Shown piece after piece: positions 643-42,191 of a DNA stretch of 64,000 bases. How positions within the stretch are numbered: the first letter of the stretch is position 1; every line of letters starts with the position of its first letter. Under the pieces are notes generated by a model, which did no database searches, had not been told where the DNA came from, and was given only the letters and a program-made list of their open reading frames with translations. The position numbers were made by a program, and so were the translations under genes. Origin of the DNA: an archaeon (GTDB taxonomy: Archaea > Nanobdellota > Nanobdellia > Pacearchaeales > GW2011-AR1); NCBI GenBank assembly GCA_021107855.1, contig JAIORZ010000011.1, forward strand, positions 7,686 to 71,685, in the 5' to 3' direction.

Positions 643-1234
643 TATTGATGAGGTTGTTGTGAAATTTGTTGAGAGGTATTTGGAAGTTGCTAAGAGTCGA
701 GGATATAAGAGTGTTTTATATGAGGATGTTTTTACTTATAATTTATGGAAGGTTTTGGAGATTGAGAAGAAAGTGATGTTTGATATAATGGAGGAATATA
801 ATTTGATGGGTTATTATAAGGATGTTATTTTTGTTGAGGGTGCGCAAAAAGGGGTGAGGTTTTTGAGAGATAATTATGATATTTATTTTATTACATCGAG
901 GCCGAAGAGTATTTCTAAGGTGACCCGTGATTTAATTTTTAATGAGTTTGGGGTTTTGGGAGATAGGGTGATTTTTTCTGGGGATGTTTTGGGTGGAGCT
1001 AAGAATAAGGATGAGATTTGTAGGGAATTGGGGATTAAGGTTATTATTGAGGATAGTGAGGACGAATCTCTTGGTTACGCTAAGAATGGGTTGAGGGTTT
1101 TGTTATTAGACAAGCCTTGGAATCAGAGTGTTAAGCATGAGAATGTTTGTCGGTGTAGGGATTGGGGAGAGATTTTGGAGAGAGTTGAGGTCCTCGACGG
1201 ACATGACTCTAGTGAGCCCGAGGTGAAAGAATGA
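626..1234 (+). CDS. HAD-superfamily phosphatase, 5'(3')-deoxyribonucleotidase-like
   Basis: N-terminal DIDEV (DxDx[TV]) motif, then ITSRP and IIEDSED blocks. GGAGGG lies 8-9 nt before ATG 626 (track start 620 is GTG). It overlaps the DP1 stop and shares an ATGA overlap with the DP2 start. Confidence 0.5.
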   Translation: MKIAIDIDEVVVKFVERYLEVAKSRGYKSVLYEDVFTYNLWKVLEIEKKVMFDIMEEYNLMGYYKDVIFVEGAQKGVRFLRDNYDIYFITSRPKSISKVTRDLIFNEFGVLGDRVIFSGDVLGGAKNKDEICRELGIKVIIEDSEDESLGYAKNGLRVLLLDKPWNQSVKHENVCRCRDWGEILERVEVLDGHDSSEPEVKE

Positions 1235-4200
1235 AGAAGTATTTTGAGGACTTGAAGAGAAATGTGGATGCGGCTTATGTTGCGGCGCGTGAGGCTCGGT
1301 CAAAGGAGTTGGATTCTGTTGGTGATGTTGAGTGTCCTTTGGCTATGACGATGGCGGAGCGAGCTGTTAATTTGGTTAAAACTATTTATTCTGGTTTGTC
1401 GGTTGAGAAGGTTTCTGTGCGGATTTTGGAATTGGAAGAGAGGTATGGGAAATTGGATTCTACGGTTGCGTTTGTTGTTGCTAGGGAAATTGCGGAGGGG
1501 AAATTTGGGAAGTTTGGGGGTGAGCTTGAGAGAATTGATATTGGGATTCGTGTTGGTTTTGCTTATATGACCTTGGGGGTTGTTGCGAGTCCGATTGAGG
1601 GTTATACTGGTTTGAGGTTGGGGAAGACGAAGAGTGGTGAGAATTATTTTATTGTGAGTTTTAGTGGGCCGATTCGGAGTGCTGGGACTACGAGTGTTTG
1701 TTTGGTTTTGATGTTGATTGATTATTTAAGGGAGAGTTTTGGGTATGCGAAGTATGATTCTAATGAGGAGGAGGTTGGAAGGTATGTGGCGGAAAACAGG
1801 GATTTCCATGAGAGGGTTAGTAATTTGCAGTATTTTCCGACTGAGAAAGAGATTAGGTTTTTGGCTGAGGGTTTGCCGATTCAGATTGATGGTGACCCGA
1901 CCGAGCGGATTGAGGTTTCGAATTTTAAGGATTTAGATAGGGTTGGAACGAATCGGATTAGGGGTGGTATGTGTTTGGCTTTTTCGGAGGGGTTGGCTCA
2001 GAAAGCGGGGAAGGCTTTGGGTCGTTTAAGGGGGGTGAAGAAAAATGGTGTGGTTTGTAGTGGTTGGGATTATTTAGAAGATTATTTGATTTTGCATAAA
2101 AAGAAAGAGGCGGGAGATGTGGAAGTTGAAGCGACTTATATTAAGGATTTGGTTGCAGGACGTCCTGTTTATGGGCATCCGGGTCGGTCGGGTAGTTTTC
2201 GGTTTCGTTATGGGAGAGGTAGGACGGCTGGGTTTAGTGCGGTTTCAGTTCATCCTGCGACGATGGGTGTTACTGGCGGGTTTTTGTCTCATGGGACACA
2301 ATTGAGATTGGAGCGACCGACGAAAGGCTGTATTATAACTTCTTGTGATTCCATTGATGGACCTATTGTGAAATTGAAGGACGGTTCGGTTAGGAGACTT
2401 AGTGATTATGATGAGGCTCGTAAGTTGTATAATGATGGAGAGATTGAGGAAATTATTTATTTGGGGGATATTTTGTTTCCTGTTGGGGATGTGATTGATA
2501 GGAATGCGGATTTGGTGAGGTCTGGGTATGTTGAGGAGTGGTGGGCGCTTGAGGTTGGAGAAGAGTTAGATGTTGAAAATTTGAGTTTTGAAGATGTCGT
2601 GAAAATTAGTAAAGAGAAAAGGGTTCCGCTTCATCCAGATTTTATTTTTTATTGGTCGCAGATTTCTAATGAGAAATTTGTTGGTTTGTTGAAGTGGTTG
2701 AATGGAGGGATTTGGCGTGCGGGTAAGTTGGTGTTGAATTGGGAAAGGGGTGTTAGGGAGCAGTTTGACTCGGGGAAGCGGGCGCTTGAGATTTTGGGTG
2801 TGGAGCATGAAGTTGTGTTGGATAATATTGTTGTTGAAAAGGATGCTCGGGCATTGTTGTTTAATCTTGGGAAGTCGGAAGTTTATAATGGAGAGGTTTT
2901 GGAGTTTAAGGCGGATGAGAGTGACGAAAGGGATGTTTTGGAGATTGTGAATGGGTTGTGTGAATTTGAAGTGAAAGATAAGGCTGGGGTTTTTATTGGG
3001 GCTCGAATGGGTCGGCCCGAAAAAGCGAAGTTGCGGAAGTTGGCGGGTAGTCCGAATGCTTTGTTTCCTGTTGGGAATCAGGGTGGGAGATTGAGTAGTA
3101 TTCAGGAGGCGATTGAGAAGGGTTTTGTTAGAGGGGATTTTCCGGTGTTTAAATGTGGATGTGGCGAGGTTGGTTTTTGTGAGAGGTGTTTGGCGTGTGG
3201 AGAGAAAGGAGTGAGGATGAATTATTGTCGGCAGTGTAATGAGATTAAGGATGGGGAGTGCAAGTTGCATGGCGAGGTTGGTTTTTTTTGGAATAGGAAG
3301 GTTGAAATTGGAGGGTATTTTAATAGGGCGATTGAGGATTTGGGTTTTAAGGATTTTGAGGTTCCGGCGATGGTTAAGGGGGTGAAGAGGTTGAATAGTA
3401 AGTTGAGGGTTCCGGAGAATTTGGCGAAGGGGATTTTGCGGGCGAAGTTTGGTTTGAGTGTTAATAAGGATGGGACGATTCGTTATGATGCTACGGAGAT
3501 TCCGTTGACACATTTTAAGCCGAAGGAGGTTGGGGTTGGTTTTGAGAAGATTAGAGAGCTTGGATATTTGAAGGATGTTGGTGGGAAGGATTTGGTGAGT
3601 GATGACCAAATTTTGGAGTTGAAGCCGCATGATATTGTTTTACCTAATTGTTCTGAGGCGAAGGATGAGAGGGCTGGCGAGGTGTTTTTTAATATTGCGA
3701 ATTTTGTTGACGAGGAGTTGAGTAGGTTTTATGGGTTGGAGCGGTTTTATAATTTGGAGGGTAGGGGTGATTTGATTGGGGTTGAGGTTGTTTGTATGGC
3801 GCCGCATAATTGTGCTGGTGTTATTGGGAGGATTATTGGGTTTTCAAATATGCAGGGTTTGTTGGCGAGTCCGTATATGCACGCAGCGATGAGGCGGGAT
3901 TGTGATGGGGACGAGTGTTCGGTTATGTTGTTGATGGATGTTTTGTTGAATTTTTCTAGAGAGTTTTTGCCGAGTCATCGTGGTGGTCGGCAGGATGCGC
4001 CGTTGGTTCTGAATGCGAGGATTAGAGCAGGGGAGGTTGATGACCAGATTTTGTTTTTTGAGAGTTGTGGGAAATATCCGTTGGAATTATATAAGGCTGC
4101 CGAGCAGGGGTTGCATTCAAGTGTGATTAAGAATAAGGTTGAGACGATTTCGGATAAATTGAAAGCTGGAGAGGATGGGTTTGTTGGAAATGGTTTTAGT

Positions 4201-4647
4201 CATGATACCGGTGATTTTAATTTTGGTAATAATAATGGAATGTATAAGGTTTTGCCGACGATGAAAGAGAAGGTCGCGGCGCAGATGGAGTTGGCGGGGA
4301 AGCTTCGTTCGGTTGATGAGGACGATGTTGCAAGGTTGGTTTTGGAGAGGCATTTTCTTCGGGATATTCGTGGGAATTTGCGGAAGTTTGGGAGGCAGGG
4401 TTTTAGGTGTTCGGTTTGTAATGAGAAATATCGCCGGGTGCCGTTGAAGGGGAGTTGTTTTAAGTGTGATGGGAAGGTGATTTTCACGGTGAGTGAGGGG
4501 AGTGTTCGGAAGTATTTGGAGCCGGCGATGGAGTTGGTTAGGGATTATAATATTTCGAGTTATACTAAGGAGAATGTGGAGCTGATAGGGGATTATATTG
4601 AGAGGATTTTTGGGAAGGGGGAGGAGCAGAGTAGTTTGGGATTATGA
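1231..4647 (+). CDS. DNA polymerase D (PolD) large catalytic subunit DP2
   Basis: 1138 aa with a typical DP2 N-terminus (KYFEDL...), several CxxC zinc clusters (CGCGEVGFCERCLACG, CSVCNEKYRRVPLKGSCFKCDG) and CDGDE. GAGGTGA precedes the ATG. Confidence 0.9.
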   Translation: MKKYFEDLKRNVDAAYVAAREARSKELDSVGDVECPLAMTMAERAVNLVKTIYSGLSVEKVSVRILELEERYGKLDSTVAFVVAREIAEGKFGKFGGELERIDIGIRVGFAYMTLGVVASPIEGYTGLRLGKTKSGENYFIVSFSGPIRSAGTTSVCLVLMLIDYLRESFGYAKYDSNEEEVGRYVAENRDFHERVSNLQYFPTEKEIRFLAEGLPIQIDGDPTERIEVSNFKDLDRVGTNRIRGGMCLAFSEGLAQKAGKALGRLRGVKKNGVVCSGWDYLEDYLILHKKKEAGDVEVEATYIKDLVAGRPVYGHPGRSGSFRFRYGRGRTAGFSAVSVHPATMGVTGGFLSHGTQLRLERPTKGCIITSCDSIDGPIVKLKDGSVRRLSDYDEARKLYNDGEIEEIIYLGDILFPVGDVIDRNADLVRSGYVEEWWALEVGEELDVENLSFEDVVKISKEKRVPLHPDFIFYWSQISNEKFVGLLKWLNGGIWRAGKLVLNWERGVREQFDSGKRALEILGVEHEVVLDNIVVEKDARALLFNLGKSEVYNGEVLEFKADESDERDVLEIVNGLCEFEVKDKAGVFIGARMGRPEKAKLRKLAGSPNALFPVGNQGGRLSSIQEAIEKGFVRGDFPVFKCGCGEVGFCERCLACGEKGVRMNYCRQCNEIKDGECKLHGEVGFFWNRKVEIGGYFNRAIEDLGFKDFEVPAMVKGVKRLNSKLRVPENLAKGILRAKFGLSVNKDGTIRYDATEIPLTHFKPKEVGVGFEKIRELGYLKDVGGKDLVSDDQILELKPHDIVLPNCSEAKDERAGEVFFNIANFVDEELSRFYGLERFYNLEGRGDLIGVEVVCMAPHNCAGVIGRIIGFSNMQGLLASPYMHAAMRRDCDGDECSVMLLMDVLLNFSREFLPSHRGGRQDAPLVLNARIRAGEVDDQILFFESCGKYPLELYKAAEQGLHSSVIKNKVETISDKLKAGEDGFVGNGFSHDTGDFNFGNNNGMYKVLPTMKEKVAAQMELAGKLRSVDEDDVARLVLERHFLRDIRGNLRKFGRQGFRCSVCNEKYRRVPLKGSCFKCDGKVIFTVSEGSVRKYLEPAMELVRDYNISSYTKENVELIGDYIERIFGKGEEQSSLGL

Positions 4648-4702: not shown

Positions 4703-5095
4703 ATGGGATTAGATATGGAAGAATTGCGAAATGTTATTATTAAACCTCTTATGAAAGGAAGTAGTATAATAGAGAGAAACCCTTTAGTGTTATTAATTTT
4801 GGAGGGTTCAGATGGTGCTGAGCAATTAGTTCTAGGTGAATTTGAAGAAATGAGGGGTTCTCGTCAAGAACCAAAGATAAAATTAGAAAATTCAATAGTT
4901 TTTAAGCGTCCTGACCAGACTCATTATTCCGATTGTCAAGATCATTATTCTCTTCCACGTGTTACTGATTCTCCCGAAAATGGAGAATATTCTTCATTAT
5001 GGAGCTTTGCATATACTGGAAGTAAAAAAATTATTAAAGAGCTCAAAAAAAGAGAAGATTGGACAAGTCCATATGCAGGCTTGATAAAAAGATAA
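4703..5095 (+). CDS. hypothetical protein (orphan, atypical composition)
   Basis: 130-aa ORF with an ATG start and no motif I recognise. Its coding strand is A+T rich with A>T, unlike the G+T-rich neighbours. Confidence 0.4.
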   Translation: MGLDMEELRNVIIKPLMKGSSIIERNPLVLLILEGSDGAEQLVLGEFEEMRGSRQEPKIKLENSIVFKRPDQTHYSDCQDHYSLPRVTDSPENGEYSSLWSFAYTGSKKIIKELKKREDWTSPYAGLIKR

Positions 5096-5146
5096 TTTTG
5101 ATTGATTATTTGTTTTTATTGTTGTAACTTAACAAGAGCACGACAA

Positions 5147-5177: not shown

Positions 5178-8100
5178 ATGGGGTTCACGCATTTACATTT
5201 ACATACGGAGTATTCTCTTTTGGACGGGGCGACGAAGGTTGATGAATTGTTTGGCAGGGTGAAGGAGTTGGGGCAGGATGCGGTTGCGATTACGGAGCAT
5301 GGAAATATGGGGGCTGTGATTAAGAAATATCAGGCGGCGAAGAAAGCTGGGGTTAAGTTGATTATGGGTTGTGAGGTTTATGTTTGTGATGATATTGGGA
5401 TTAAGGATAAGGACGCGAAGAGGTATCATTTGATTTTGTTGGCGAAGGATTTGGAGGGTTATCAGAATTTAGTTAAGCTTGATTCGATTGCGAATAATGA
5501 GGGTTTTTATTATAAGGCTCGGGTTGATAAGAAATTGTTGCGGAAGTATTCTAAGGGATTGATTTGTATGACGGCGTGTTTGGCGAATGATGTTGACCAG
5601 GCGGTTGTTGGTGGGGACGAGGAGAGGGCGAAGAAGTTGATTGAAGAATATATTGATATTTTTGGGAAGGAGAATTTTTATTTAGAGGTGCAGGATCATG
5701 GGATTTCTGAGGAGAAGGTTGTTGCCGATTTTTATAAGAGAATTGCGAAAGAAATGGATTTGAAGATTGTTGCGACTTGTGATTCGCATTTTTTGAAGAA
5801 GGATGATGCTTATGCTCATGAGGTTATGCTTGCGATTCAGACTAATGGTGATATGAATGTTGAGAAACGATTTAAGTTTTCTGGGAGTGGATATTGGATT
5901 AAGAGCGAGGAGGAGATGAGGAAGATTTTTCCGCAGGAGTATTTAGACTTGAGTTGTGAGATTGCTGATAGGTGTAATGTTGAGTTGGAGATGGGTGAGC
6001 CGATTTTTCCTGATTTTGAGACGCCGGATGGTTCGACGCATAGGGAGTATTTGTATAAGTTGTGTAAGAACGGGGTTGATAGGATTTATGGGGATAGGGA
6101 TAATTATGAGGAGGCTTTGAAGAGGATGGAATTTGAGTTGGATGCGATTTCGAATATGGGGTTCGAGGCGTATTTTTTGATTGTTGCGGATTTTATCGAG
6201 GACGCGAAGAAACATTGTCAGGTTGGGCCGGGACGAGGGAGTGGTGCGGGTTCGATTGTTGCGTATGCTTTGGGGATTACTCAGCTTGACCCCTTGGAAT
6301 TAGGATTGTTGTTTGAGAGGTTTATTAATCCAGATAGGATTTCATTACCGGACTTTGATATTGATTTTGGGGATAAGGATGTTGTTTTGGATTATGTTCG
6401 GAAGAAATATGGTGAGGATAAGGTGTCGTTGATTGGGACGTTTGGGACGATGAGTGCGAAGGCGGTTTTGAAAGATGTGATGAGGGTTTTTAGGGTTCCG
6501 TTTGATGAGGCGAATGCGATTACGAAGTCGGTTGCTGAAGGGACGATTCAGAAAAGTTTGGATGCCGAGAGGGATGGGCATTTGACGGACGAGGCTAGGA
6601 AGCTTCGGGATTTTGAAAAGAAGTTTAAAAAGATTTTTAAGATTGCGAAAAGGCTGGAGGGCTGTGTTCGGCATAAGGGTGTTCATGCTTGTGGTGTTGT
6701 TTGGGGGAAGAAAGCGATTAATGAATATATTCCGACTTATGGGAAGAATGGAGATGTGATTACGCAGATTGAGGGACCAGATGTCGAGAGTTATGGTTTG
6801 GTGAAGTTTGATTTTTTGGGGCTGGAGACTTTAAATGTTGTGAAGAAGGTTTTGGATGCGATTGGGAAGGATTCGGAGTGGTTGGAAAATATTCCGATGG
6901 ATGATGATTCGGTTTATGAGATGTTGCGGGATGAAAAGAGTATTGGGGTTTTTCAGATTGAGAGCGAGGGAATGAGGAAGGTTTTGGCGCAGATTAAACC
7001 TACTTGTTTTGATGATATTATTGCGATTGTTGCGCTTTATCGTCCTGGTCCGATGCAATATATTCCTATGTATGCGAATAGGAAGGCAGGTAGGGAGGCG
7101 GTTAGTTATGTTCATCCTAATGCTGAGAAAATTTTGGCGCCGACTTATGGGATTATGGTTTATCAGGAGCAGGTGATGCAGTTGAGTCGGGCTTTGGCTG
7201 GGTTTAGTGCGGGGGACAGTGATGTTTTGAGGAAGGCGATTGGGAAGAAAATTTTAGCTTTGATGGAAAAAATGGAGGGGCAGTTTAAGTCGGGTTGTGT
7301 TAAGCATTCAGGGATGGAGAAGAGTGAGGTGAATCATTTATGGGATGATATTGTGAAGTTTGCGGCTTATAGTTTTAATAAATCTCATGCAGCTGCGTAT
7401 GCTTTGATTTCGTATCGGACCGCTTACTTGAAGAAGTATTATCCTGTTGAGTTTTATGCTGCGACGATTTCTTCGGCTGTTAAGAATCCTGAGAAGTTGG
7501 CGCTTTATTTGGAATCTGCTAGGGGTGAGGGTATTAAGATTTTGCATCCAGATATTAATAGTTCGAAAGAGGATTTTTCGGTTGATTTAGTCGAGGTTCG
7601 CGAGGAAGATTTTCCACAAAAAGTCAAGGAGTCTTCGACTCACGTGACTTCTCGTGGAGGGAAGGTTGGGAGTTTTATGGAGAAAGATGAAAAGAGGCAT
7701 GAGAAAGTGATTCGTGTGGGGTTGAGTGGGATTAAGAATGTTGGAGGAGAGGCTATGGCGAAGATTCTCGAGGGGCGACCGTATAAGTCATATCAGGATT
7801 TTATTAATAGGGTTGATTTATCGAAGGTGAATAAGAGAGTTTGTCATAGTTTGATTTCGGTTGGATGTTTTGATGATATGGGGATTAATAGGGCGAGTTT
7901 GCTTTCTGTTTATGATAGGGTTTGTGTGACCCAGAATTCTCGTGAGAAGCAGATGGCGCTTTTTGGTGGGGGGATTGCAAATGTTGTGGAGTATCCTGAT
8001 TTGGAGCCGTTGAGCTTGAAGGAGCAGTTGGATTTGGAGGAGGAGTTGTTGGGGGTTTGTGTTTCGGGGCATGCGGTTGATGCTTACGCTGAGTCTAAGA

Positions 8101-8408
8101 ATAATGAGTTTGTTCCTTTTAATAAATTGAAAGAGGATTTGGAGGTGGATGTTTTTGGTTTGGTTAAGAGGTTTACGAAGATTATGACGAAGAAAGGGGA
8201 TGATATGGCGTTTATGGATTTGAGTTCTAGGTCTGGGGATTTGAAAGTGACGATTTTCCCTCGGGATTTTGAGAAGATGAGGGAGGATGCGGAGAGGATT
8301 AAGATTGGGGATGGCGTGAAGATTGCGGGGAAACTTAAGGAAAGTGAGGAGTTTGGGGATGCGTTTATTGCTAAGAGTGTTTTGGTTTGTTCTCCTGTTG
8401 CAAAGTAG
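5178..8408 (+). CDS. dnaE: DNA polymerase III alpha subunit (bacterial C-family replicase, DnaE type)
   Basis: 1076 aa. PHP motifs HLHLHTEYS, ITEHGNM and CDSHF; palm motif LPDFDIDF; GVHACGVV; HhH GLSGIKNVGG; QMALF at aa 925-929; C-terminal OB-like region. Confidence 0.9.
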   Translation: MGFTHLHLHTEYSLLDGATKVDELFGRVKELGQDAVAITEHGNMGAVIKKYQAAKKAGVKLIMGCEVYVCDDIGIKDKDAKRYHLILLAKDLEGYQNLVKLDSIANNEGFYYKARVDKKLLRKYSKGLICMTACLANDVDQAVVGGDEERAKKLIEEYIDIFGKENFYLEVQDHGISEEKVVADFYKRIAKEMDLKIVATCDSHFLKKDDAYAHEVMLAIQTNGDMNVEKRFKFSGSGYWIKSEEEMRKIFPQEYLDLSCEIADRCNVELEMGEPIFPDFETPDGSTHREYLYKLCKNGVDRIYGDRDNYEEALKRMEFELDAISNMGFEAYFLIVADFIEDAKKHCQVGPGRGSGAGSIVAYALGITQLDPLELGLLFERFINPDRISLPDFDIDFGDKDVVLDYVRKKYGEDKVSLIGTFGTMSAKAVLKDVMRVFRVPFDEANAITKSVAEGTIQKSLDAERDGHLTDEARKLRDFEKKFKKIFKIAKRLEGCVRHKGVHACGVVWGKKAINEYIPTYGKNGDVITQIEGPDVESYGLVKFDFLGLETLNVVKKVLDAIGKDSEWLENIPMDDDSVYEMLRDEKSIGVFQIESEGMRKVLAQIKPTCFDDIIAIVALYRPGPMQYIPMYANRKAGREAVSYVHPNAEKILAPTYGIMVYQEQVMQLSRALAGFSAGDSDVLRKAIGKKILALMEKMEGQFKSGCVKHSGMEKSEVNHLWDDIVKFAAYSFNKSHAAAYALISYRTAYLKKYYPVEFYAATISSAVKNPEKLALYLESARGEGIKILHPDINSSKEDFSVDLVEVREEDFPQKVKESSTHVTSRGGKVGSFMEKDEKRHEKVIRVGLSGIKNVGGEAMAKILEGRPYKSYQDFINRVDLSKVNKRVCHSLISVGCFDDMGINRASLLSVYDRVCVTQNSREKQMALFGGGIANVVEYPDLEPLSLKEQLDLEEELLGVCVSGHAVDAYAESKNNEFVPFNKLKEDLEVDVFGLVKRFTKIMTKKGDDMAFMDLSSRSGDLKVTIFPRDFEKMREDAERIKIGDGVKIAGKLKESEEFGDAFIAKSVLVCSPVAK

Positions 8409-9693: not shown

Positions 9694-9733
9694 GGTTTAG
9701 TAAGGGTATTTTGGTTTATAAGTTTTTAGAAGA

Positions 9734-10921
9734 TTAGAAGGGGAGGTAGAAAATAATTGTTGGGATTAGGATTGCGCCCATTAGGATGCTTTTTCTGGTT
9801 TGGAATTCTATGCAGGTTAGACCTAGTGATGTTGAGACGGCTAAGACGATTAGGCCGAGAATTCCTGTGAAGTAAAATGTGATGGCAGTCAGAAAAATTA
9901 TGATAGCTAGGGAAATTTTACTGTATGGAAATTTGTGGATTATTTTTGCTATCTTTTTTGCGAAGAAGATTGTTATTGGAATTGAGATTATTGATGAGAT
10001 TAGGATTGTTGTGAAAATTGTTAGTAAGTTTGTCGTCGATATTTGGGTTATTTGTGAGATGGCGGCGGCGATTCCTGTTCTTTGTTTCTGGAATAGGTAG
10101 AGAGTTAGGAAGGAGGTAGCGGTCACTAGGGTGTTGATTGACCCGAGGAGGATTAGGAATTGTTCTCGGTTTAGTTTTTTGAATATTGAAGAGCTTATTA
10201 TTGCGGCTTGGCTGGAACCGAGTCCTGGGAGGAAGGAGCAGATTGGAGAGATGAGGATGGTTGCTAGTGTTGGTTTGATTAGTTCTTTTTTGTCGATGTG
10301 GAGTTTTTCCAGGGATTGTTTTGGAGGGATTGATTTTGATTTTATTGAATAAATTATTGTTGAAGTTCCGAATAGTCCTGTCAAAAGTGGGAGGAGGGGT
10401 TGTTGTAGGTTTAGGTTGAAAGTTGCTAAGCCGAGGAATCCTGCTAGGGCAAAAATTAGGATAGATTTCATTTTTTCTTTTTCTGTATAAAGTAGGAAGA
10501 TTGCTACCCAGATTAGGAAGAACGCCATCATTTGTTTGATGAATGGGTAGAGTTTTGGGAGGATGAAGAGGAAGATAGGGATGACGATAATCATTGAGGC
10601 GATTGCGATGGTCGAGCCTATGATGGTCAGTTTTGTTGCGTGGATTCCGAGTCCTTTTAGTAGAAATTTGTGTCCTGGGAGAACCCCTAGGAATGAGTCC
10701 TCGTCTGGTGCTCCGAAGAAGATTGATGGGATGAAGTTTAGGAAAGTGTGTGTTATCGCGGTGCTGGTGAGGAAGATGAGGAGGGTGGTGGTTGGTAGTT
10801 TTAGGAAGAAAGGGATGGAGATTATTATTGTGGCTATGAGGTTGGTGTGGATTCCGGGGGTTAGGCCGCTGATGGTTCCGGAGAGGATGCCGAGGAGCAG
10901 GGGGAGAATTAGGTTGAGCAT
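9734..10921 (-). CDS. polytopic membrane protein, TctA/DUF112-like
   Basis: 395 aa with about 10 TM helices. The N-terminal LLGILSGTISGLTPGIHTN resembles the GxxxGxxPGxG signature of TctA-family proteins. Confidence 0.45.
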   Translation of the reverse strand: MLNLILPLLLGILSGTISGLTPGIHTNLIATIIISIPFFLKLPTTTLLIFLTSTAITHTFLNFIPSIFFGAPDEDSFLGVLPGHKFLLKGLGIHATKLTIIGSTIAIASMIIVIPIFLFILPKLYPFIKQMMAFFLIWVAIFLLYTEKEKMKSILIFALAGFLGLATFNLNLQQPLLPLLTGLFGTSTIIYSIKSKSIPPKQSLEKLHIDKKELIKPTLATILISPICSFLPGLGSSQAAIISSSIFKKLNREQFLILLGSINTLVTATSFLTLYLFQKQRTGIAAAISQITQISTTNLLTIFTTILISSIISIPITIFFAKKIAKIIHKFPYSKISLAIIIFLTAITFYFTGILGLIVLAVSTSLGLTCIEFQTRKSILMGAILIPTIIFYLPF

Positions 10922-10922
10922 T

Positions 10923-11210
10923 TTATTTTAGGACGGAAATTCTTTCGATGATGATTTGTTTTTTATTTTTGTAAATGCTGGATTTTCCTTGGAATTTTAT
11001 TTGGTCGTTTTTATTGAGAGATAGATTTATTTTGTCGAATATAATTAATTCGGCTGAGTGGTTTTCTAGTTGGATTGTGGTTTTTGTAGGGGAATAGTGG
11101 ATTGAGCTTATTGTGGCGGTTTGGATTGATTTTGTTTGGGCGAGGAAGATTAGTAAGAGAATTCCTAGGAGAGTTAAGATAAGAGTTAACTTTTCCGCTC
11201 TTGTTGTCAT
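10923..11210 (-). CDS. membrane-anchored OB-fold-like small protein (hypothetical)
   Basis: 95 aa with an N-terminal TM helix followed by a beta-rich domain. ATGA overlap with the upstream GTPase gene. Confidence 0.4.
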   Translation of the reverse strand: MTTRAEKLTLILTLLGILLLIFLAQTKSIQTATISSIHYSPTKTTIQLENHSAELIIFDKINLSLNKNDQIKFQGKSSIYKNKKQIIIERISVLK

Positions 11211-12121
11211 TCTGTTTGAAACTCTATTATGTCTTTGTCTTTTAGGTGGTGTTCTAATCCGATTATTTGACCGCCGAATTTACTAGATGGTCCCCAGACT
11301 CGTGCTCGTTTGATTTTTTTTGACATTCCTTTTCGAATTTTTTCTGCGGCATCTCTGAAAGTTGAATTTTTCTTTAATATCATTGGTTCTTTACTTGGAA
11401 TTTTTTTGGGTTCTTTTGTGTAGATTCGGATGATTGGGAATGTTTTGAATATCTTTCGTTTTAGTTGTGTGAGTTTCGTTTTAGTCGGTGAATTTGATAG
11501 AAATATGTAGGAGAGTTTTTTGTGTTTTGATTTTAGGGTTGCTTCTATTTTTCTTTTTTCTATTTCTGAGAGGAGGTCTTCTTTATTAAATACTAAGATG
11601 GTTTTTGCGTGGGTTCTGTAAAGGAGGTCTGTGGCTTTTTTGATTTGGTCAAGGTTGTCGATTGTTAGGAGGAGTGTGTCGGTTGAGTTGACGAGGGATT
11701 TGTCGTGGTTTGGGAATGAGGGGATGTCGATGATTTGGATTTGGGCGTCTTTGTAGTGGAAGGTTCCGAGTTGGGGTTGGTATGTTGTGAAAGGGTGTGG
11801 GGAGGTTTTTGTTTCTTGGGACGTTAGGGTTTGGAAGATTGTGGATTTTCCGGTGTTTGGGAATCCTGTGAGGACGCATTGCATATCAGCTTTTTTGATT
11901 CCGACTTGGTTCCCTTTGCCTGATTTTTTTTGTTTGACTAGAGAGGTTTTTAGTTTTTTGTAGCGATTTGTTAAATTCTTTCGCATGTTTTCCGAAGATT
12001 TATGTTTTGGGACTTCCTTCATCATGATTTCTAGGCATACGAGTCTTTCTTCGTCCGAGGTGGCTTCTTGATATTCTTGTTCGGCTTTTTGGTAGAAGGG
12101 TGATTGGTTTGTGCTTGCCAT
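11207..12121 (-). CDS. DRG/Obg-like GTPase with C-terminal TGS domain
   Basis: G1 motif GFPNTGKST, FTTYQP (G2 region), and a C-terminal TGS-like ARVWGPSSKFGGQIIGLEHHLKDKDIIEF. Confidence 0.8.
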   Translation of the reverse strand: MASTNQSPFYQKAEQEYQEATSDEERLVCLEIMMKEVPKHKSSENMRKNLTNRYKKLKTSLVKQKKSGKGNQVGIKKADMQCVLTGFPNTGKSTIFQTLTSQETKTSPHPFTTYQPQLGTFHYKDAQIQIIDIPSFPNHDKSLVNSTDTLLLTIDNLDQIKKATDLLYRTHAKTILVFNKEDLLSEIEKRKIEATLKSKHKKLSYIFLSNSPTKTKLTQLKRKIFKTFPIIRIYTKEPKKIPSKEPMILKKNSTFRDAAEKIRKGMSKKIKRARVWGPSSKFGGQIIGLEHHLKDKDIIEFQTE

Positions 12122-12203
12122 GATTTCTTTCTTTTTAGAAAAAAGAAATTTCTCGCAAGTAAAAAAACTTATTTTCCAAAACTGCGTTTTGATTTAGTTC
12201 CAT
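12122..12203 (-). repeat. intergenic repeat family A, copy 1 (mini-ORF plus hairpin, abuts the DRG start codon)
   Basis: 82 nt, about 90% identical to 42109-42190 by manual alignment. The minus strand reads ATG..MELNQNAVLENKFFYLREISFF..TAA (12203-12135). Confidence 0.85.
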
Positions 12204-12236
12204 AAGGTTTTTAATGTTAGGAGGTTTATTAAATTT

Positions 12237-14655: not shown

Positions 14656-15561
14656 ATGGTGATATATGCTGTTGGGCATAAGAGTCCGGATAGTGATGCG
14701 GTTTGTGCGGCTATTGCTGTTGCGGAGCTGAAGAGGCAATTAGGTGTTGAGTGTGAGGCGAGAATTTCTGAGGAGCTTAATACGGAGACTAAGTTTGTTT
14801 TGGAAAAATTTGGGGTTGCGGTGCCTGAGATTTTGAAAAGTGCAAAAGATGAGAAAATTATTTTGGTTGACCATACGGAATTGTCGCAGGCTGTTGATGG
14901 TATGGACGAGGCGGATATTGTAGGGATTGTTGACCATCATAATCTTGGGGATGTTAGTACGGATAGTCCGGTTGATATTTTGGTTCGTCCGCTTGGGAGC
15001 ACGTGCACTATTCTTAAGGGTTTGTTTGATTTTTTTAAGAAAGAGATTCCTGAAGATATTGCCGGAATAATGCTTTGTGCTCTTTTGAGTGATACTGTTA
15101 TTTTTAGGTCGCCTACTACTACGGATGTGGATAGGTGGGTTGCTGACGAGTTGGCGGAAATTGCTGGTGTCGAGGATGTTGAGGCGTTGGGGGTTGAGAT
15201 GTTTAAGGTTAGGTCGGATATTAAGGGGATAAGTGCTAAGCGTTTAGTGACGAGGAATTATAAGAATTATGAGATGAATGGGAAAAAGATTGGGATTGGT
15301 CAGTTGGAGTTGGCTGGTTTGGATGAGGCTTTGAAGATGAAGGATAAGTTGTTGAAGGAGGCTGTGAAGTTGAAGAAGGGGCGGTATGCGGTTTTTTTGA
15401 TGTTGACTGATGTTTTGAAGCAAGGGACGGAGTTGATTTGTATTAGTGGGGATAAACATTTAGAGAGGAAGGTTTTTGGTTGTGGTGAGGATTGTTGGGT
15501 TGGTGGTATGATGAGTCGGAAGAAGCAGGTTGTTCCTAAACTAGAAGAATTCTTTGAGTAA
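14656..15561 (+). CDS. ppaC: manganese-dependent inorganic pyrophosphatase (family II, DHH-DHHA2)
   Basis: GHKSPDSDAVCAA, ILVDHTE, IVDHHNLGD, and C-terminal DHHA2-like SRKKQVVP. Confidence 0.85.
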   Translation: MVIYAVGHKSPDSDAVCAAIAVAELKRQLGVECEARISEELNTETKFVLEKFGVAVPEILKSAKDEKIILVDHTELSQAVDGMDEADIVGIVDHHNLGDVSTDSPVDILVRPLGSTCTILKGLFDFFKKEIPEDIAGIMLCALLSDTVIFRSPTTTDVDRWVADELAEIAGVEDVEALGVEMFKVRSDIKGISAKRLVTRNYKNYEMNGKKIGIGQLELAGLDEALKMKDKLLKEAVKLKKGRYAVFLMLTDVLKQGTELICISGDKHLERKVFGCGEDCWVGGMMSRKKQVVPKLEEFFE

Positions 15562-15660
15562 TTTTGATTTTCAATGCTTTATACTTCGTTGGACGAACCC
15601 TCACGTACCTCTGTACGCCACAGAACCGTTCGCCTCGTCTAAATCTATTGAAAATAAAAA
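15562..15660 (+). repeat. structured repeat family B, copy 1 (candidate 3' UTR RNA element)
   Basis: Terminal helix ttttgattttcaat/attgaaaataaaaa, a conserved core GCTTTATACTTCGTTG...CGTACctctGTACGCCAC...CTAAATCT, placed directly after the ppaC stop. Confidence 0.8.
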
Positions 15661-15709
15661 TTGTTTTTTGTTTGGAAATGTATTTAAGTGGAATTTTTCT
15701 TGTTGGTTT

Positions 15710-19099: not shown

Positions 19100-19792
19100 T
19101 TAAGTTTTTGATTTTAGTAGAGATGTAAATTTTACCACTTTATTTTTATCAAATATTTTTTCTAATTGTTTTTCTGTGGCATTAAATATGTTATTTAGTG
19201 ATTTAAATTCTTTTAAAAGATTTTTTGCTAGAGTTGGACCTATCCCTGGGAAGCCTTCTAATATGAATTGTTTTTGTAGCTTTGATGTTTGTTGTGTCTT
19301 GATTTGGCGTATTGCATTTTGTGATTTTTGTTTTTCGTAGCGCTTGGCGGTTAGGATTAGGAATCTTGCAGTGTCTTTTTCATTTTTTGTGTAGATGATT
19401 GGAACTTGGTAATCTGTTGTTATTGAAAGGAGCATGCCTCGGATTGCGTTTTCGTGGACGTTAAATTGATTGTAGTTGTAGTGAAAGTTTTCTAGAATTA
19501 GGAAATGTTTCGAGTATTTTTTTATTTCTAGAAGTTGTTTATGAAGTCTTTTGTCTAACATGGAGCCTATGAAGTCTGGGAAGGTTTTTCGTTCGATGAT
19601 TGTGTCGTTGATTAGGTAGTCGCCGATTTGGAGAAGTTCGTGTTGGATGTTGGCTTTTTGTTCGATGAGATTTGCGGTGATTAGGGATTGTCTTTCTCGG
19701 GTGTCAATGATGATTGGAGTTTTTGGGTTTGGGCAGGGGATGGTTGAGGATAAGGTTTTGGTTTTGGAGAAGATGTTTTCGATTTGTTTCAT
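19100..19792 (-). CDS. XPF/Hef-type ERCC4 nuclease with C-terminal HhH2
   Basis: ERCC4 blocks IIIDTRE, GDYLI and ERKTFPDF; HhH2 LEGFPGIGPTLAKNLL. ATGA overlap with the helicase gene. Confidence 0.8.
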   Translation of the reverse strand: MKQIENIFSKTKTLSSTIPCPNPKTPIIIDTRERQSLITANLIEQKANIQHELLQIGDYLINDTIIERKTFPDFIGSMLDKRLHKQLLEIKKYSKHFLILENFHYNYNQFNVHENAIRGMLLSITTDYQVPIIYTKNEKDTARFLILTAKRYEKQKSQNAIRQIKTQQTSKLQKQFILEGFPGIGPTLAKNLLKEFKSLNNIFNATEKQLEKIFDKNKVVKFTSLLKSKT

Positions 19793-23008: not shown

Positions 23009-23314
23009 ATGTTGAAGATAAAGCGCTTGAGTGAAGTCGTCGGAAAGAAGGTATATGCCGATTCTGGAGATTTGTTTGGAATAATTGAAGAGGTTAATTT
23101 GGTTGATAATAAGATTGATGGCTGGAGGATTGTTGTTTCTAGGGATTCTGGAATGATTGAGGTTTTGGGTGGAGCTCGGGGAATTATTGTTCCGCATCAG
23201 TTTATTAAGGCGATTGGAGATGTTGTGATTATTAATAGGAATGCTGTTCCGGTTAGGCAAGAAGAAGAGTTGAGTGGTAGTGATGATTTTGATTCTGAAG
23301 AAGAGTTAATGTAA
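23009..23314 (+). CDS. PRC-barrel domain protein
   Basis: LSEVVGKKVYADSGDLFGIIEEVNLVDNKIDGWRIVV is typical of small archaeal PRC-barrel proteins, followed by an acidic tail. Confidence 0.55.
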   Translation: MLKIKRLSEVVGKKVYADSGDLFGIIEEVNLVDNKIDGWRIVVSRDSGMIEVLGGARGIIVPHQFIKAIGDVVIINRNAVPVRQEEELSGSDDFDSEEELM

Positions 23315-23415
23315 TTTCTATTTTCGCTGTCAATTTTATTGTAAAATTTTTTTTACGTACTCTTGTGCGCCGCAAAAATTTTTACTTCAAAACTTAACTA
23401 CCGAAAATAGAAATT
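23313..23415 (+). repeat. structured repeat family B, copy 2 (A+T-rich, more diverged)
   Basis: Terminal helix aatttctattttcg/cgaaaatagaaatt. The core retains ACGTACtcttGTGCGCCGC and ...CTTAACTA. It starts at the stop codon of the PRC-barrel gene. Confidence 0.65.
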
Positions 23416-23469
23416 GTTTTGAGTGTCAGTATTAGTAATATTTAAATAAGTTTGATTATTTGATTTGAT

Positions 23470-23949
23470 ATGATATTTGAGAATGCGTTTTTTACGGAGA
23501 TGTTGTTACCGTTTTTATTGGTGTTTGTCGTCGTGTTTGCGATTTTGCAGAAGTCGAAGATTTTGGGCGACGGGAAGGCTCAGGTTGATGCGATTGTTAG
23601 TTTAGTTATTGGTCTGATTTTGATTGGAGTTCCGGGACCGCGAGATATCCTCGTCGGGATTATGCCTTGGATGGCGGTTGGTGTCGCAGTGATTTTGGTG
23701 TTTATGATTTTGTATGGTTTTGTCGCGGGGGATTTGAGTGGGAGTAATATGCCCAGTGGTTTGAAGTATACTTTTTTAGGCTTGGCTGCCGTGTTCACTG
23801 TGGGTGTTGTTTTATTTATTAGTGGGATGTGGGATAAGATTTGGGATTCGTTTGGAACGTCGAGTGATATTTGGATGAATATTGTTATGATTGTTTTGGT
23901 TTTAGGTGCGGTTGCTGTTGCGATTTTTAGTGGGAAGAAAGGCAAGTGA
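23470..23949 (+). CDS. 4-TM membrane protein, tandem paralog 1 of 3
   Basis: Shares the N-terminal helix motif VFAILQKSKILG with the next two genes and has a similar size and TM layout. Confidence 0.6.
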   Translation: MIFENAFFTEMLLPFLLVFVVVFAILQKSKILGDGKAQVDAIVSLVIGLILIGVPGPRDILVGIMPWMAVGVAVILVFMILYGFVAGDLSGSNMPSGLKYTFLGLAAVFTVGVVLFISGMWDKIWDSFGTSSDIWMNIVMIVLVLGAVAVAIFSGKKGK

Positions 23950-23990
23950 GAACTGGAAAGATATATAAATATGGATTATTAGATTAGATT

Positions 23991-24500
23991 ATGGTTACAA
24001 CGATTACCGAAGTCTTGAATATCTGGAATGACATGGGTGTTTTTTCATACGTGATTCCGTTTCTGTTGATTTTTGCGGTTGTGTTTGCGATTTTGAAGAA
24101 GACGAAAATTTTAGGGGAGGATAACGACGGTATTCTGGCGATTATTTCGGTTGCATTGGGGCTGTTGTCGTTGCAGTTTGACTTTGTGAGTGAGTTTTAT
24201 GCAGTGATTTTTCCACGGTTTGGGATTGGACTGAGTATTTTTTTAGTGTTGATAATTTTTATTGGATTCTTTTTCCCTGAGGATAAAGATATTGGGAGTA
24301 TGAAATGGATAGGGTATGTTGTTGGTATTGGGGCTGTTATTTGGGCGCTTAGTGATTGGGATGAGTGGAGTAATTATGGTGGATTTGGTGGATGGTTCGG
24401 TGAGAATTTTTGGGCGCTGGTGATTTTAGGTGGTATTATAGCGGTTATTTCTATTGCAGTTAAGGGGAAGGATTCTTCAAAAGGGAAGGGCTCTTCGTAA
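23991..24500 (+). CDS. 4-TM membrane protein, tandem paralog 2 of 3
   Basis: VFAILKKTKILG motif, Trp/Gly-rich loop, C-terminal Lys/Gly/Ser tail. Confidence 0.6.
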   Translation: MVTTITEVLNIWNDMGVFSYVIPFLLIFAVVFAILKKTKILGEDNDGILAIISVALGLLSLQFDFVSEFYAVIFPRFGIGLSIFLVLIIFIGFFFPEDKDIGSMKWIGYVVGIGAVIWALSDWDEWSNYGGFGGWFGENFWALVILGGIIAVISIAVKGKDSSKGKGSS

Positions 24501-24979
24501 TGGCAGTTGCTGATGTTTCGGCGATTGGATATTTTATGCCTATTTTTGCGTTCTTGTTAGTATTTATTGTGATTTATGCTTTACTTGTTAAGACTAAGGT
24601 TTTGGGTGAGAGTCCGGCGGTGATGCTTTTTATTTCGTTTATTCTTTCGAGTTTTTTTATTGTCGAAGCGAGTTTGGTTGATTTTGTGCAATTTAGTTCG
24701 GCTTGGTTTGGGGTGATTGTGATTTCGTTGTTTTTTTTGATTGTGGTTATAGCGTTTATTCCTGATATTGACTTGGCGGCTTTTTTTGGCAAGGGGAACT
24801 GGTTTGCTTGGGTTCTATTGGGGGGCATGCTTTTATTTTTTATTTTTAGCTCGGCTTATGTTTTTAATTGGGTTGTGAATTGGGGGATGCTTAAGGACTG
24901 GTTTGATAGTGATTGGTTTGGGATGGGTTTGTTATTAGTTATCGCAGGGGTCGTGTCTTTTGTATTGACAAAAAAATAA
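24500..24979 (+). CDS. 4-TM membrane protein, tandem paralog 3 of 3
   Basis: IYALLVKTKVLG motif. TAATG overlap with paralog 2. Confidence 0.6.
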   Translation: MAVADVSAIGYFMPIFAFLLVFIVIYALLVKTKVLGESPAVMLFISFILSSFFIVEASLVDFVQFSSAWFGVIVISLFFLIVVIAFIPDIDLAAFFGKGNWFAWVLLGGMLLFFIFSSAYVFNWVVNWGMLKDWFDSDWFGMGLLLVIAGVVSFVLTKK

Positions 24980-25675
24980 TTATTTAGAAAGTTTTTTCAT
25001 TTCCTTGACGTTATCGATTAAGGGGTCCATTAATTTTGAGACTGTTCCGTGAAGGTTGTCGAGGTCTTTGTGTATCATTGCGGAGGATTCCCCGAATTCT
25101 GCCATTTTTCCTATGACTGCCTGTTGGAGTTGTTGAATTGAGTTTTCGATTCGTTTTAGGCGGTCGTCCATATTATCAACTTTATCTTGAATCTGGTTTT
25201 TGAATGAAACCATGTCGCCGACTTTTGTTTTATAATTTTCTAATTTTTCGGTTGCTACTTGTTCTGCAATTTCGGAGATTGTTTCGGTGTCCATGGATCC
25301 TTGTGGTGCGTAGTAGTCTTGTTCAGAATATGCTTGTGGTGTTGGTTGATAGTAGTCTTCTTCTTGTTGTGGCGGTGCTGGCTGGGCATATTCTTCTTGT
25401 TGAGGTTGTGGCGGTGCGGGTACCGGTGGTTGTGCCGCGGGCTGCTGTTCTGGTTCTCCTGGCATCATGGAAGCTTGCATCCCTTGTGGAGGTGGTGCGC
25501 TTGGCATTCCTTGTGCTGGTTGTTCTGGAGGCGATACGGCTTGTTTTATTTTAGCTTGACTGAGTGCATCGTTGATTTCTGCGGGAGAAATTCCTTCGTT
25601 TTGGAGTTGTGTTGTTATTTCAGCTTCAGATTTATTTTGTTGTTGCATTTCTGTTATTCGATCGAGAGTTGCCAT
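24980..25675 (-). CDS. hypothetical protein: small helical N-domain, Pro/Gln-rich linker, C-terminal coiled coil
   Basis: Start reset to ATG 25675 (MATLDRITEM); the track extension to 25741 runs through repeat A. The composition-biased PQ linker spans roughly 25300-25520. Confidence 0.55.
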   Translation of the reverse strand: MATLDRITEMQQQNKSEAEITTQLQNEGISPAEINDALSQAKIKQAVSPPEQPAQGMPSAPPPQGMQASMMPGEPEQQPAAQPPVPAPPQPQQEEYAQPAPPQQEEDYYQPTPQAYSEQDYYAPQGSMDTETISEIAEQVATEKLENYKTKVGDMVSFKNQIQDKVDNMDDRLKRIENSIQQLQQAVIGKMAEFGESSAMIHKDLDNLHGTVSKLMDPLIDNVKEMKKLSK

Positions 25676-25787
25676 GATTTCTTTCTCTTTAGAAAAGAGA
25701 AATTTCTCTTCCACCCAAATGGCGTACCTCTGTTGAGGCAAAGTAGAGAAACTTAATTTCCAAAACTGCGTTTTGATTTAATTCCAT
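25676..25787 (-). repeat. intergenic repeat family A, copy 2 (with a net 30-nt internal insertion)
   Basis: Same ends as copies 1 and 3. The mini-ORF (25787-25689) is 32 codons long because the insertion at about 25709-25742 is in frame. Confidence 0.85.
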
Positions 25788-25788
25788 G

Positions 25789-26172
25789 TTAAGATATAGG
25801 CTTTACGCTTTTTATTTCTTTGTTAATTAGTTCTTCGACGTCTTTTTTCCGCATAAATTCTAAGGGTTGGAAATCTTTTAACATTCTTTCGATCAGCCCG
25901 ATTTCTTCTCGTTTGACGAATTTGTTGAATTCGGTTAAGAGGGAATTTGAGACTTTTTTTATTTTTTCGACGTCTTGTTTGATTGTTTGATTCTCCCGTT
26001 TTATTTCCCTTAAGTTTTCTTCTATGTCTTGGCGCGAGGATATTAAATTTTTGCCTAAAAGTAAGACACGTTCCCTGATAAGCTTGTTCCGTTCATCTAG
26101 GTCTCGGAGTCTTGTGTTGAAATCGGATAAGAGGAACTTAATTTGGTTGTCTTGGGGTTGAGGGTCGACCAT
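25789..26172 (-). CDS. coiled-coil protein (hypothetical)
   Basis: 127 aa with a heptad-rich charged sequence. Transcribed divergently from the secretion ATPase gene. Confidence 0.5.
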   Translation of the reverse strand: MVDPQPQDNQIKFLLSDFNTRLRDLDERNKLIRERVLLLGKNLISSRQDIEENLREIKRENQTIKQDVEKIKKVSNSLLTEFNKFVKREEIGLIERMLKDFQPLEFMRKKDVEELINKEIKSVKPIS

Positions 26173-30053: not shown

Positions 30054-30077
30054 GGATAGAAAAATCAAAACGAACTT

Positions 30078-36026: not shown

Positions 36027-36056
36027 AGGACAAAATATAAAACAAAGTTAATAAAT

Positions 36057-38635: not shown

Positions 38636-38675
38636 GTTAATAAAGTGTTGGACTAATTAATAAAGATTGCTAAAA

Positions 38676-39056: not shown

Positions 39057-39106
39057 ATAGGTCTAACAATTCTCTTATTTATAAAACTTCTCATCTTGAA
39101 TTTTGT

Positions 39107-42190: not shown

Positions 42191-42191
42191 A

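Follow-up and report, generated by a model that had tools for sequence, protein, structure and literature searches.

The window, i.e. the whole 64-kb stretch of DNA analysed here, has archaeal gene content (e.g. PolD DP1/DP2, RadA, RPA, eIF2-alpha, GINS and SRP54), and the closest named relatives of its ppaC gene come from Pacearchaeota/Nanoarchaeota MAGs. Three homologous elements of ~105 bases lie on its + strand, where they abut or overlap the ends of three genes:

14656–15561, + strand: ppaC, Mn-dependent inorganic pyrophosphatase (DHH/DHHA2), host gene of copy 1
15559–15663, + strand: copy 1, subfamily 1, 105 nt, 112 bits with the covariance model
15559–15561, + strand: TAA stop codon of ppaC, in copy 1
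15562–15663, + strand: inserted unit of copy 1, TTTTGATTTT...AAAATAAAAATTG
15604–15617, + strand: apical hairpin of copy 1 (CGUAC-CUCU-GUACG)
15664–15673, + strand: native T-run TTTTTTGTTT 3' of copy 1, found at the empty site too
23009–23314, + strand: gene of a 101-aa protein with a weak PRC-barrel match, host gene of copy 2
23312–23416, + strand: copy 2, A+T-rich subfamily 2, 105 nt, 93.7 bits
23312–23314, + strand: TAA stop codon of the PRC-barrel-like gene, in copy 2
23356–23369, + strand: apical hairpin of copy 2
23417–23420, + strand: T-run 3' of copy 2
56440–57027, + strand: gene of a GINS family protein (start approximate), host gene of copy 3
57020–57122, + strand: copy 3, subfamily 1, 108 bits
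57025–57027, + strand: TAA stop codon of the GINS gene, in copy 3
57064–57077, + strand: apical hairpin of copy 3
57122–57127, + strand: T-run at the 3' end of copy 3

A preliminary description of this DNA had placed three copies here, each with its start at or over a + strand gene's stop codon; both points are confirmed, as are the pyrophosphatase, weak PRC-barrel and GINS assignments of the host genes. The PRC-barrel match of the copy 2 host (E = 7.7e-4) is below the gathering score, and orthologues of this gene occur in the relatives L006, L008 and L015. For GINS, the mechanically called ORF at 56014–57027 is over-extended: homologues are 185–212 aa long, and several of them are named GINS by JGI or NCBI. 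Copies 1 and 3 are similar in their cores, at 77–78% identity, rather than the 82% that had been estimated by hand. The core motif, apical CGTAC-N4-GTRCGCC, occurs three times on the + strand; over both strands of the window, with two or fewer mismatches, it has five matches against 0.8 expected, far more than chance would give. A covariance-model scan with filters off revealed no further full copy in the window.

Relatives' contigs reached via ppaC and GINS homologues, together with one metagenome pattern scan, yielded 11 further copies. The family thus comprises 14 copies in eight genomes (an outlier copy from Lactococcus raffinolactis, L014, is counted in both figures). Besides the window and L014, there are three copies in L006, one copy plus one degenerate copy (at the PRC site) in L008, two each in L015 and L016, and one each in L017 and L019. 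The metagenome pattern scan returned four loci, among which the contig of L006 is absent. Archaeal copies score 78–116 bits with the covariance model and chance matches less than 26 bits. When the genome collection was searched with a pattern built from the three-copy consensus, only two chance matches appeared (a Clostridia and a Chlorobiota MAG); the covariance model gave no score for one of them (L001) and a marginal score for the other (L002, 15.4 bits, E = 1.8). Viral contigs contained no match for two structured patterns. A pattern of the terminal inverted repeats (TIRs) only retrieved six chance palindromes there, in A+T-rich contigs of which several are labelled as giant-virus MAGs; they score no more than 26 bits. 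BLAST against plasmids and phages gave nothing relevant, nor did the literature on the terminal sequences or on DPANN MITEs.

The host genes belong to at least seven unrelated types, i.e. ppaC, the PRC-barrel gene, a pilin-like paralogue (site 's3'), GINS, a DUF424 gene, a T2SSF-like gene and a gene in L016; this seventh type is cut off at a contig edge. At least two subfamilies can be distinguished, with core identities of 60–96% inside subfamilies across genomes, and copies inside one genome are 78–81% alike. Copies at the same site mostly share their subfamily. The PRC and s3 sites, by contrast, carry subfamily 1 in L015 and subfamily 2 in the window, L006 and L008. The s3 copies of L006 and L008 have cores that are 96% identical, compared with 76% for their host genes and 33% for the downstream DNA. 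This likeness reflects either strong constraint on the copy or recent exchange.

Nearly all copies start with TAATTTTGATTTT and end with AAAATCAAAATTG, and the unit is 103–107 nt long across the 14 copies. In most of them the outer 12–13 nt form a conserved TIR (AATTTTGATTTT / AAAATCAAAATT), and variation of the terminal helix is confined to its inner part. The left ends of the window GINS copy and the L008 s3 copy have diverged. Where TIRs have diverged, they are still compensated (the window GINS and PRC copies, L008 s3 and L019). The two odd arm pairs in the window, AATTTCTATTTT/AAAATAGAAATT in copy 2 and ATTATTAATTCT/AGAATTAATAAT, are variants of the consensus in which both arms have changed together, and copy 3 has a perfect 16-bp terminal helix (ATTATTAATTCTTACT/AGTAAGAATTAATAAT) with the GINS stop codon inside it. 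The terminal helix of the preliminary description stands, at 12–16 bp, and its assertion that the arms are not conserved does not: the arms had seemed different every time because only three copies were compared.

Every one of the 14 copies runs in the same direction as an ORF upstream of it, and the stop codon of that ORF is offset from the first base of the element by −4 to +6 nt (13 copies were tabulated; the L019 copy was read directly and starts at its ppaC TAA). In 10 of the 13 tabulated cases, the TAA with which the element opens doubles as the stop codon. In the L008 s3 and window GINS copies the stop codon lies six bases inside, where the TIR usually has TGA, while in L015 the element follows a TAA 0–1 nt past the true stop. 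The unit thus sits right after a TAA, which is usually the stop codon itself, and ahead of the native T-run. The stop codons are native, because the C-termini of the ppaC and PRC proteins are the same at filled and empty sites. Whether filled or empty, the sites are closely followed by a native BRE/TATA-like promoter and a T-run; the empty spacer between ppaC and the M16 gene, for example, is 45 nt long and holds the T-run and a BRE/TATA-like box near the next ATG. We take the T-runs that follow the elements to be archaeal oligo-T terminators, on general knowledge of archaeal termination. Their position between stop codon and T-run implies that the elements are transcribed together with the gene before them. 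Every copy is on the G-rich strand, and gene orientation and replication strand are confounded in this data set. In the window, TTTTGATTTT is also present 8–11 nt after two other stop codons, and the T4–T5 runs at both ends of the element resemble native gene-end motifs.

We then compared filled and empty sites. In the close relative L005/L018 (ppaC 92% identical, gene order kept), both comparable sites, ppaC and PRC, are empty and read GAGTAA-TTTTTGTTTGG and ATGTAA-TTTTGGGTT, i.e. a stop codon followed by the native T-run (TAATTTTTGTTTGG at the ppaC site of L005) and promoter. The ppaC site is filled in the more distant L006 (ppaC 78% identical) and L019 (76%). The PRC site is filled in L006 and L015, degenerate in L008 and empty in L005, whereas s3 is filled in L006, L008 and L015 and empty in the window and L005. 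L022 and L026 have an empty GINS site, and L023 contains no copy according to the covariance model. Overall, no copies were found in L005/L018, L007, L011–13, L021, L022/23 and L026, for several of which 9–21 kb were scanned.

In every comparison, the unit gained or lost consists of arms plus core, TTTTGA...AAATTG, directly after TAA. The preliminary description had offered as an alternative that a conserved core of ~70 nt inserts into pre-existing palindromes. Since arms and core are absent together and the empty sites contain no palindrome, just TAA and the native T-run, this idea is rejected. The clean losses in L005 could result from enzymatic excision; they could equally result from palindrome-stimulated slippage between TTTTG(A) at the element start and the similar T-run that follows.

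No target-site duplication was found: the flanks share no k-mer (k = 2–8) under 64 boundary definitions. The only flank repeat detected is a palindromic AATT inside the conserved termini, and the empty sites do not fit a duplication of AATT. Duplication of AATT or of TTTTG(A) is rejected, given that the G which invariably follows AATT is part of the element and that most right flanks lack TTTTG. The elements are therefore not classical DDE-type MITEs, and with within-genome copies only 78–81% alike there is no sign of recent transposition. Conserved TIRs together with target-site duplications had been named as the mark of a MITE; the former are present and the latter absent. Pfam searches of the 64-kb window and the annotated flanks in the ~20-kb pieces from relatives revealed no transposase, integrase or HUH gene, nor did this sequence set show a longer element bounded by these TIRs. 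Because orientation is fixed, the 3-nt left flank is fixed and there is no duplication, the evidence points towards single-strand or site-specific spread rather than DDE cut-and-paste. The element ends, however, are unlike those of IS200/IS605 or REP elements.

Each element can be drawn as one long imperfect hairpin of ~40 pairs, and the folding z-scores of the three window copies range from −2.9 to −6.0. With the 11 added copies, the covariation proposed from three copies is borne out: 94–95% of cells are paired (93.6% for the six copies of subfamily 1 and 94.8% for the seven of subfamily 2), compared with 27–41% and 37–53%, respectively, in slid registers used as a control. Pairs changed on both sides number 16–19 per subfamily (19/39 in subfamily 1, 16/42 in subfamily 2), and the covariation score is reached by 0/500 shuffles in either subfamily; support for the helices exceeds what composition and phylogeny would produce. 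The L. raffinolactis copy was left out of the subfamily counts and of the divergence comparison below, and forms one row of the 13-copy alignment. The inner helix, for which covariation between GGACG/CGUUC and GAAAG/CUUUC had been described, also occurs as GCAAG/CUUGC and GUAAG/CUUAC. The apical 5-bp stem is kept while its 4-nt loop varies, as described previously; across the family it follows the pattern YGURY-N4-RYRCR. In this stem, pairs 1, 4 and 5 covary (U-A to C-G or G-C to A-U, in either direction), pair 2 is always G-C and pair 3, with a single U.G exception, always U-A.

Same-site copies of the window and L006 are 67–69% identical, compared with 66–77% for flanking intergenic DNA and 76–86% for neighbouring genes, and they differ by 8–9 fully compensated pairs, two one-sided changes and 3–5 breaks. 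Divergence is about 29% in paired and 31% in unpaired columns. The element conserves complementarity rather than sequence. Whatever their subfamily, the three copies of the window all have CGUAC as apical stem, and those of L006, also three, all have UGUGY. Such genome-specific stems could arise by co-evolution with a trans factor or by short-patch conversion; concerted evolution of the apical stem is a hint only, because it depends on two exceptional copies (window PRC and L006 ppaC) and all the changes are transitions that can pass through wobble intermediates.

Does this covariation reflect RNA or DNA? Over the consensus helices of the 13-copy alignment, with the invariant outermost T..G pair excluded, G.U and A.C cells are equally frequent (8 vs 8). 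Counted by subfamily, they are about 20 vs 12, favouring the plus strand; this excess comes mostly from two invariant positions and has the direction that the G+T richness of the strand would give. Base composition also explains why, for 12 of the 14 copies, the more stable fold is that of the minus strand. Wobble pairs and folding energies, being confounded by base composition, are uninformative about the strand of function. A single U.G pair in copy 2, which the preliminary description took as possible only in a + sense RNA, is thus not diagnostic and carries no weight. Compensatory changes across the hairpin are also common in REPINs (PMC3116915); because of this precedent and the missing strand signal, covariation is no proof of an RNA. 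This is a warning of wider use: when a palindromic element exists in many copies, even strong covariation should not be read as evidence of an RNA gene.

Searching Rfam 15 at gathering thresholds identified only three tRNAs in the window, and for the three elements nothing credible at E ≤ 1, in agreement with the earlier impression that they belong to no known RNA family. SECIS elements, H/ACA and C/D sRNAs, K-turns, DGR target hairpins and attC sites can be discarded, their defining motifs being absent on reading the sequence. Taken as a whole, the original view of a structured RNA rather than a MITE holds for the structured, covarying family and fails in its argument against mobility, since the arms are conserved TIRs.

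REPINs and REP-BIMEs of bacteria are mobilised by RAYT, a Y1 HUH transposase; no RAYT was found near the elements in the 64-kb window and annotated flanks. The termini described here are simple inverted repeats that are not self-complementary and have no GTAG-type tetranucleotide, whereas a REPIN consists of two REP palindromes with a GTAG-type motif. The elements further differ by their archaeal host, their A+T-rich rather than G+C-rich termini, their exact placement at the stop codon and their strictly sense orientation. Shared with REPINs and REP-BIMEs are occurrence in tens of copies just after genes or between convergent genes, persistence at orthologous sites and excision or loss of the whole unit, as well as the general build: an extragenic hairpin of ~100 nt whose ends are conserved and whose spacer is less so but shows compensating changes (PMC3116915 and general knowledge).

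Classical prokaryotic MITEs (e.g. Correia/NEMIS, RUP and ERIC, and the Sulfolobus SM elements) are likewise short, non-coding, A+T-rich and bounded by TIRs, can fold into a long hairpin, are dispersed between genes, are often co-transcribed, form subfamilies and occur patchily between strains. In contrast to these, our elements lack a target-site duplication and any parent IS with the same TIRs in the sequences inspected, have a non-random orientation (14/14) and are old within genomes (78–81% identical).

With non-autonomous IS200/IS605 derivatives (PATEs and similar) the elements share duplication-free insertion just 3' of a fixed short target, loss that leaves no trace, a single orientation on one strand and a need for DNA secondary structure. 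However, those elements have separate subterminal hairpins and ends that are not mutual inverted repeats, while here the ends pair with each other, and their targets are 4–5 nt long, compared with the 3-nt TAA. No TnpA or TnpB was found in the window and annotated flanks, and no omega-RNA/HEARO-type match in Rfam. Integron attC sites are also imperfect palindromes (57–141 nt) that follow or overlap an ORF stop codon in fixed orientation, with structure more conserved than sequence; in many copies a TT comes after the ...G that closes the conserved outer repeats. By contrast, the termini TAATTTTGATTTT ... AAAATCAAAATTG contain no RYYYAAC/GTTRRRY (R''/R') core sites, there is no cassette array or intI, and the hairpin alone is gained or lost beside syntenic housekeeping genes.

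We hold with moderate confidence that these elements are a dispersed, non-coding palindromic repeat of mobile origin, MITE/REPIN-like but without target-site duplication, in a Pacearchaeota-like (DPANN) lineage. This reading is preferred because the hosts are unrelated, TIRs and length are conserved, there are subfamilies, occupancy is patchy, whole units are gained and lost, and the same sites carry different subfamilies in different genomes. The element looks like a small mobile or once-mobile unit, not a dedicated RNA gene, and is best described as one specialised for the gap between stop codon and terminator in this DPANN lineage.

In bacteria, co-transcribed REP hairpins can protect mRNA 3' ends. 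By analogy, the archaeal unit would be co-transcribed as the tail of the upstream mRNA and form a ~40-bp hairpin just before the oligo-T terminator, where it may be tolerated or even useful, protecting the 3' end or strengthening termination; its T-rich termini may themselves help termination. In compact genomes the gap between the stop codon and the next promoter would be the sole harmless site for a 105-nt insertion, and the few bases after the stop are probably almost the only such place, which would account for the exact position. Complementarity would be maintained over the long term by selection on the hairpin or by arm-to-arm (quasi-palindrome) correction, and losses would take out the whole hairpin cleanly. 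Two further observations sit less well with a mobile origin: that same-site copies mostly belong to one subfamily also fits vertical inheritance of a functional element, and a TIR element inserting as double-stranded DNA would not be expected to show one orientation in 14/14 copies. As to a hairpin in the 3' UTR, the T4–T5 runs in the 5' TIR might halt RNA polymerase before the hairpin is reached.

Vertical inheritance would be expected if the element were a dedicated cis-acting structured RNA, for example a protein-bound 3' UTR element for stability, localisation or translational control, which does not transpose, is found at a set of target genes and has copies that stay similar through selection or gene conversion. 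We consider this unlikely. It would account well for the co-transcription that position makes obligatory (sense in 14/14), for pairing kept at fixed loci over about 30% divergence and for the lack of recent near-identical copies. Subfamily 1 also has C-rich, partly unpaired segments (CUUCGUUG ... CGCCUYGNCUAA) that are conserved in four genomes although C is disfavoured on this strand throughout the genome; the apical purine/pyrimidine pattern YGURY is strictly conserved, and the CGUAC (three window copies) and UGUGY (three L006 copies) stems could reflect co-evolution with a trans-acting factor. However, the host genes are functionally unrelated, the close relative lacks both copies with no replacement, and several related genomes have none at all. 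Mobile repeats typically show conserved TIRs and a constant length, as found here, and different subfamilies occupy one site in different genomes. Nor do G.U and A.C counts give a plus-strand signal, with the minus strand folding better in 12/14 copies, and paired and unpaired columns diverge equally (about 29% vs 31%).

That wobble pairs carry no strand signal would suit a purely DNA-level selfish hairpin, which moves as single-stranded DNA by means of an IS200/IS605- or RAYT-like HUH enzyme or an attC-style recombinase, inserts 3' of TAA on one strand and owes its complementarity to the transposition intermediate or to quasi-palindrome correction, with no role as RNA. Insertion right after a short fixed TAA without duplication, clean loss of the whole unit, the abundance of double and scarcity of one-sided changes and the REPIN precedent (PMC3116915) are in keeping with it, and the location of all copies on the G-rich strand is consistent with replication-coupled, strand-specific insertion, except that replication strand is confounded with gene orientation. 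We nevertheless consider it unlikely. The ends pair mutually and have no subterminal hairpins of their own as IS200/IS605 ends and REPs do, a GTAG-like motif is absent and no Y1/HUH or integrase gene was seen in the 64-kb window and annotated flanks. In addition, a 3-nt target alone cannot explain the exclusive association with stop codons, and palindrome correction should erase the asymmetric internal loops that are conserved.

The last alternative, unrelated native terminator hairpins that resemble one another merely as A+T-rich palindromes after stop codons, could appeal to the occurrence of TTTTGATTTT 8–11 nt after two other stops in the window, to chance matches of TIR-only patterns in unrelated A+T-rich viral contigs and to the look-alike in L. 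raffinolactis, but it is extremely improbable and effectively refuted by the scores of 78–116 bits against less than 26 for chance matches and by core identities of 60–96% within subfamilies across genomes, together with the fixed length and the lack of any pattern match when the window was shuffled 100 times.

Hairpin repeats of MITE/REPIN type are already known; what is new is an archaeal variant that abuts stop codons, is strictly sense and leaves no duplication. To our knowledge, REP, REPIN and MITE elements have been well studied in bacteria and have received hardly any attention in DPANN archaea, a group with extremely compact genomes. The family is a natural case in which to study how hairpin repeats are tolerated or used at archaeal mRNA 3' ends and which enzyme moves them, and the covariance model with the termini provides a marker for strain-level comparison of these uncultured lineages. 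Proof of a cognate enzyme, of a function in the host or of a genuinely cross-domain distribution would add to its significance. More speculatively, and in our view with rather low probability, the family could be an archaeal counterpart of REPINs, i.e. a ~105-nt hairpin copied as single-stranded DNA by a postulated enzyme, homing immediately 3' of TAA stops on the sense strand and persisting over long times as a 3' UTR hairpin of use to the host. If so, the genome-specific apical stems would represent co-evolution with that enzyme or with an RNA-binding protein.

The outlier copy bears on the question of distribution. L014 is L. raffinolactis (EF-G 100% identical), and its rpsG-fusA spacer contains a 105-nt hairpin with the termini and length of the family, an apical GCGUAC-CUCA-GUACGC and the rpsG TAA at its start. 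By rough estimate a pure chance match is unlikely, and the family would cross domains if this hairpin is homologous. Among nine strains of L. raffinolactis it is a single fixed copy, and the few differences between strains are uncompensated.

The sequence TTTTGATTTT, identical to the 5' terminus of the stop-codon-abutting hairpin repeat (family B), also occurs 3' of stop codons in genes that lack the element, either directly adjoining the stop codon or at a distance of ≤11 nt. Such element-free sites are located at:

L007 (contig of an archaeal relative) 10907-10925, TTTTGATTTT site
window 5093-5105, TTTTGATTTT site
window 19106-19115, TTTTGATTTT site
window 30061-30070, minus strand, TTTTGATTTT site

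The genes concerned include the L007 ppaC (Mn-dependent inorganic pyrophosphatase). The motif at these stop codons could be (i) native and terminator-like, (ii) a preferred target or (iii) a footprint left by lost copies.

Other repeats and hairpins, one of them outside the archaea, are:

window 12112-12207, 25666-25791 and 42099-42194, minus-strand sense, second repeat family (family A), copies 84-93% alike
window 43552-43598, between two minus-strand genes, short perfect hairpin TTGGTTTTTAAGAG-N8-CTCTTAAAAACCAA
L014 6409-6513 and L033-L041 about 9703-9810, rpsG-fusA spacer of Lactococcus raffinolactis, 105-nt hairpin

On the minus strand, family A extends from a TAA, which is a stop codon in the copies at 25.7 kb and 42.1 kb, to the ATG of the following gene, and includes two palindromes (i.e. 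CCAAAACTGCGTTTTG and GAAATTTCTCTTT..AAAGAGAAAGAAATC). It looks like an intergenic promoter/leader module common to several genes. In the 25.7-kb copy, a 30-nt insertion includes ACAGAGGTACG, which matches the minus strand of the apical hairpin of family B over 11 nt. The short hairpin is a weak match (23 bits) to the covariance model built from family B, and could be either an independent, terminator-like structure or a strongly reduced relative of the family B terminal helix.

The Lactococcus raffinolactis hairpin, which is fixed in nine strains of this species, shares its length, its apical stem and the termini TAATTTTGATTTT...AAAATCAAAATTG with archaeal family B. This likeness may reflect homology; alternatively, it may be due to convergence.

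Beyond the repeats, the gene content of the window includes the following features:

5178-8408, plus strand, DnaE, bacterial-type DNA polymerase III alpha with PHP, DNA_pol3_alpha, finger and HHH_6 domains
23470-24979, tandem array of three paralogues (159, 169 and 159 aa) with a common, conserved hydrophobic N-terminal segment (repeat D3)
34139-41323, minus strand, seven-ORF block near the tandem paralogues, no Pfam hit in any ORF

The DnaE gene lies in an otherwise archaeal replication setting (PolD DP1/DP2 at 7-4647, RadA, RPA and GINS), and is kept in relatives L006 and L007. The tandem paralogues, for which there is no Pfam match, may be pilin-like; nearby genes encode a type IV prepilin peptidase and a T2SSE-like ATPase.

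GC skew is extreme and sustained, with (G-C)/(G+C) of +0.3 to +0.6 on the plus strand over most of the window (1-64000), and at 28-40 kb, where genes are on the minus strand, it drops no further than about 0. T exceeds A throughout. Gene strand and replication strand thus both seem to contribute to the pattern.

The mechanical GINS ORF (56014-57027, 337 aa) extends too far 5', into an overlap with the opposite-strand FtsY gene; homologues have 185-212 aa. Downstream of GINS in the relative L022, a partial duplicate of the tRNA-Thr 3' part (..GTATCTGTCTTGTAAACAGAGGGTCGAGGCTTTGACTCCC) is followed just downstream by an intact tRNA-Thr (10640-10700 and 10728-10800), and may be a scar from integration at the tRNA gene.
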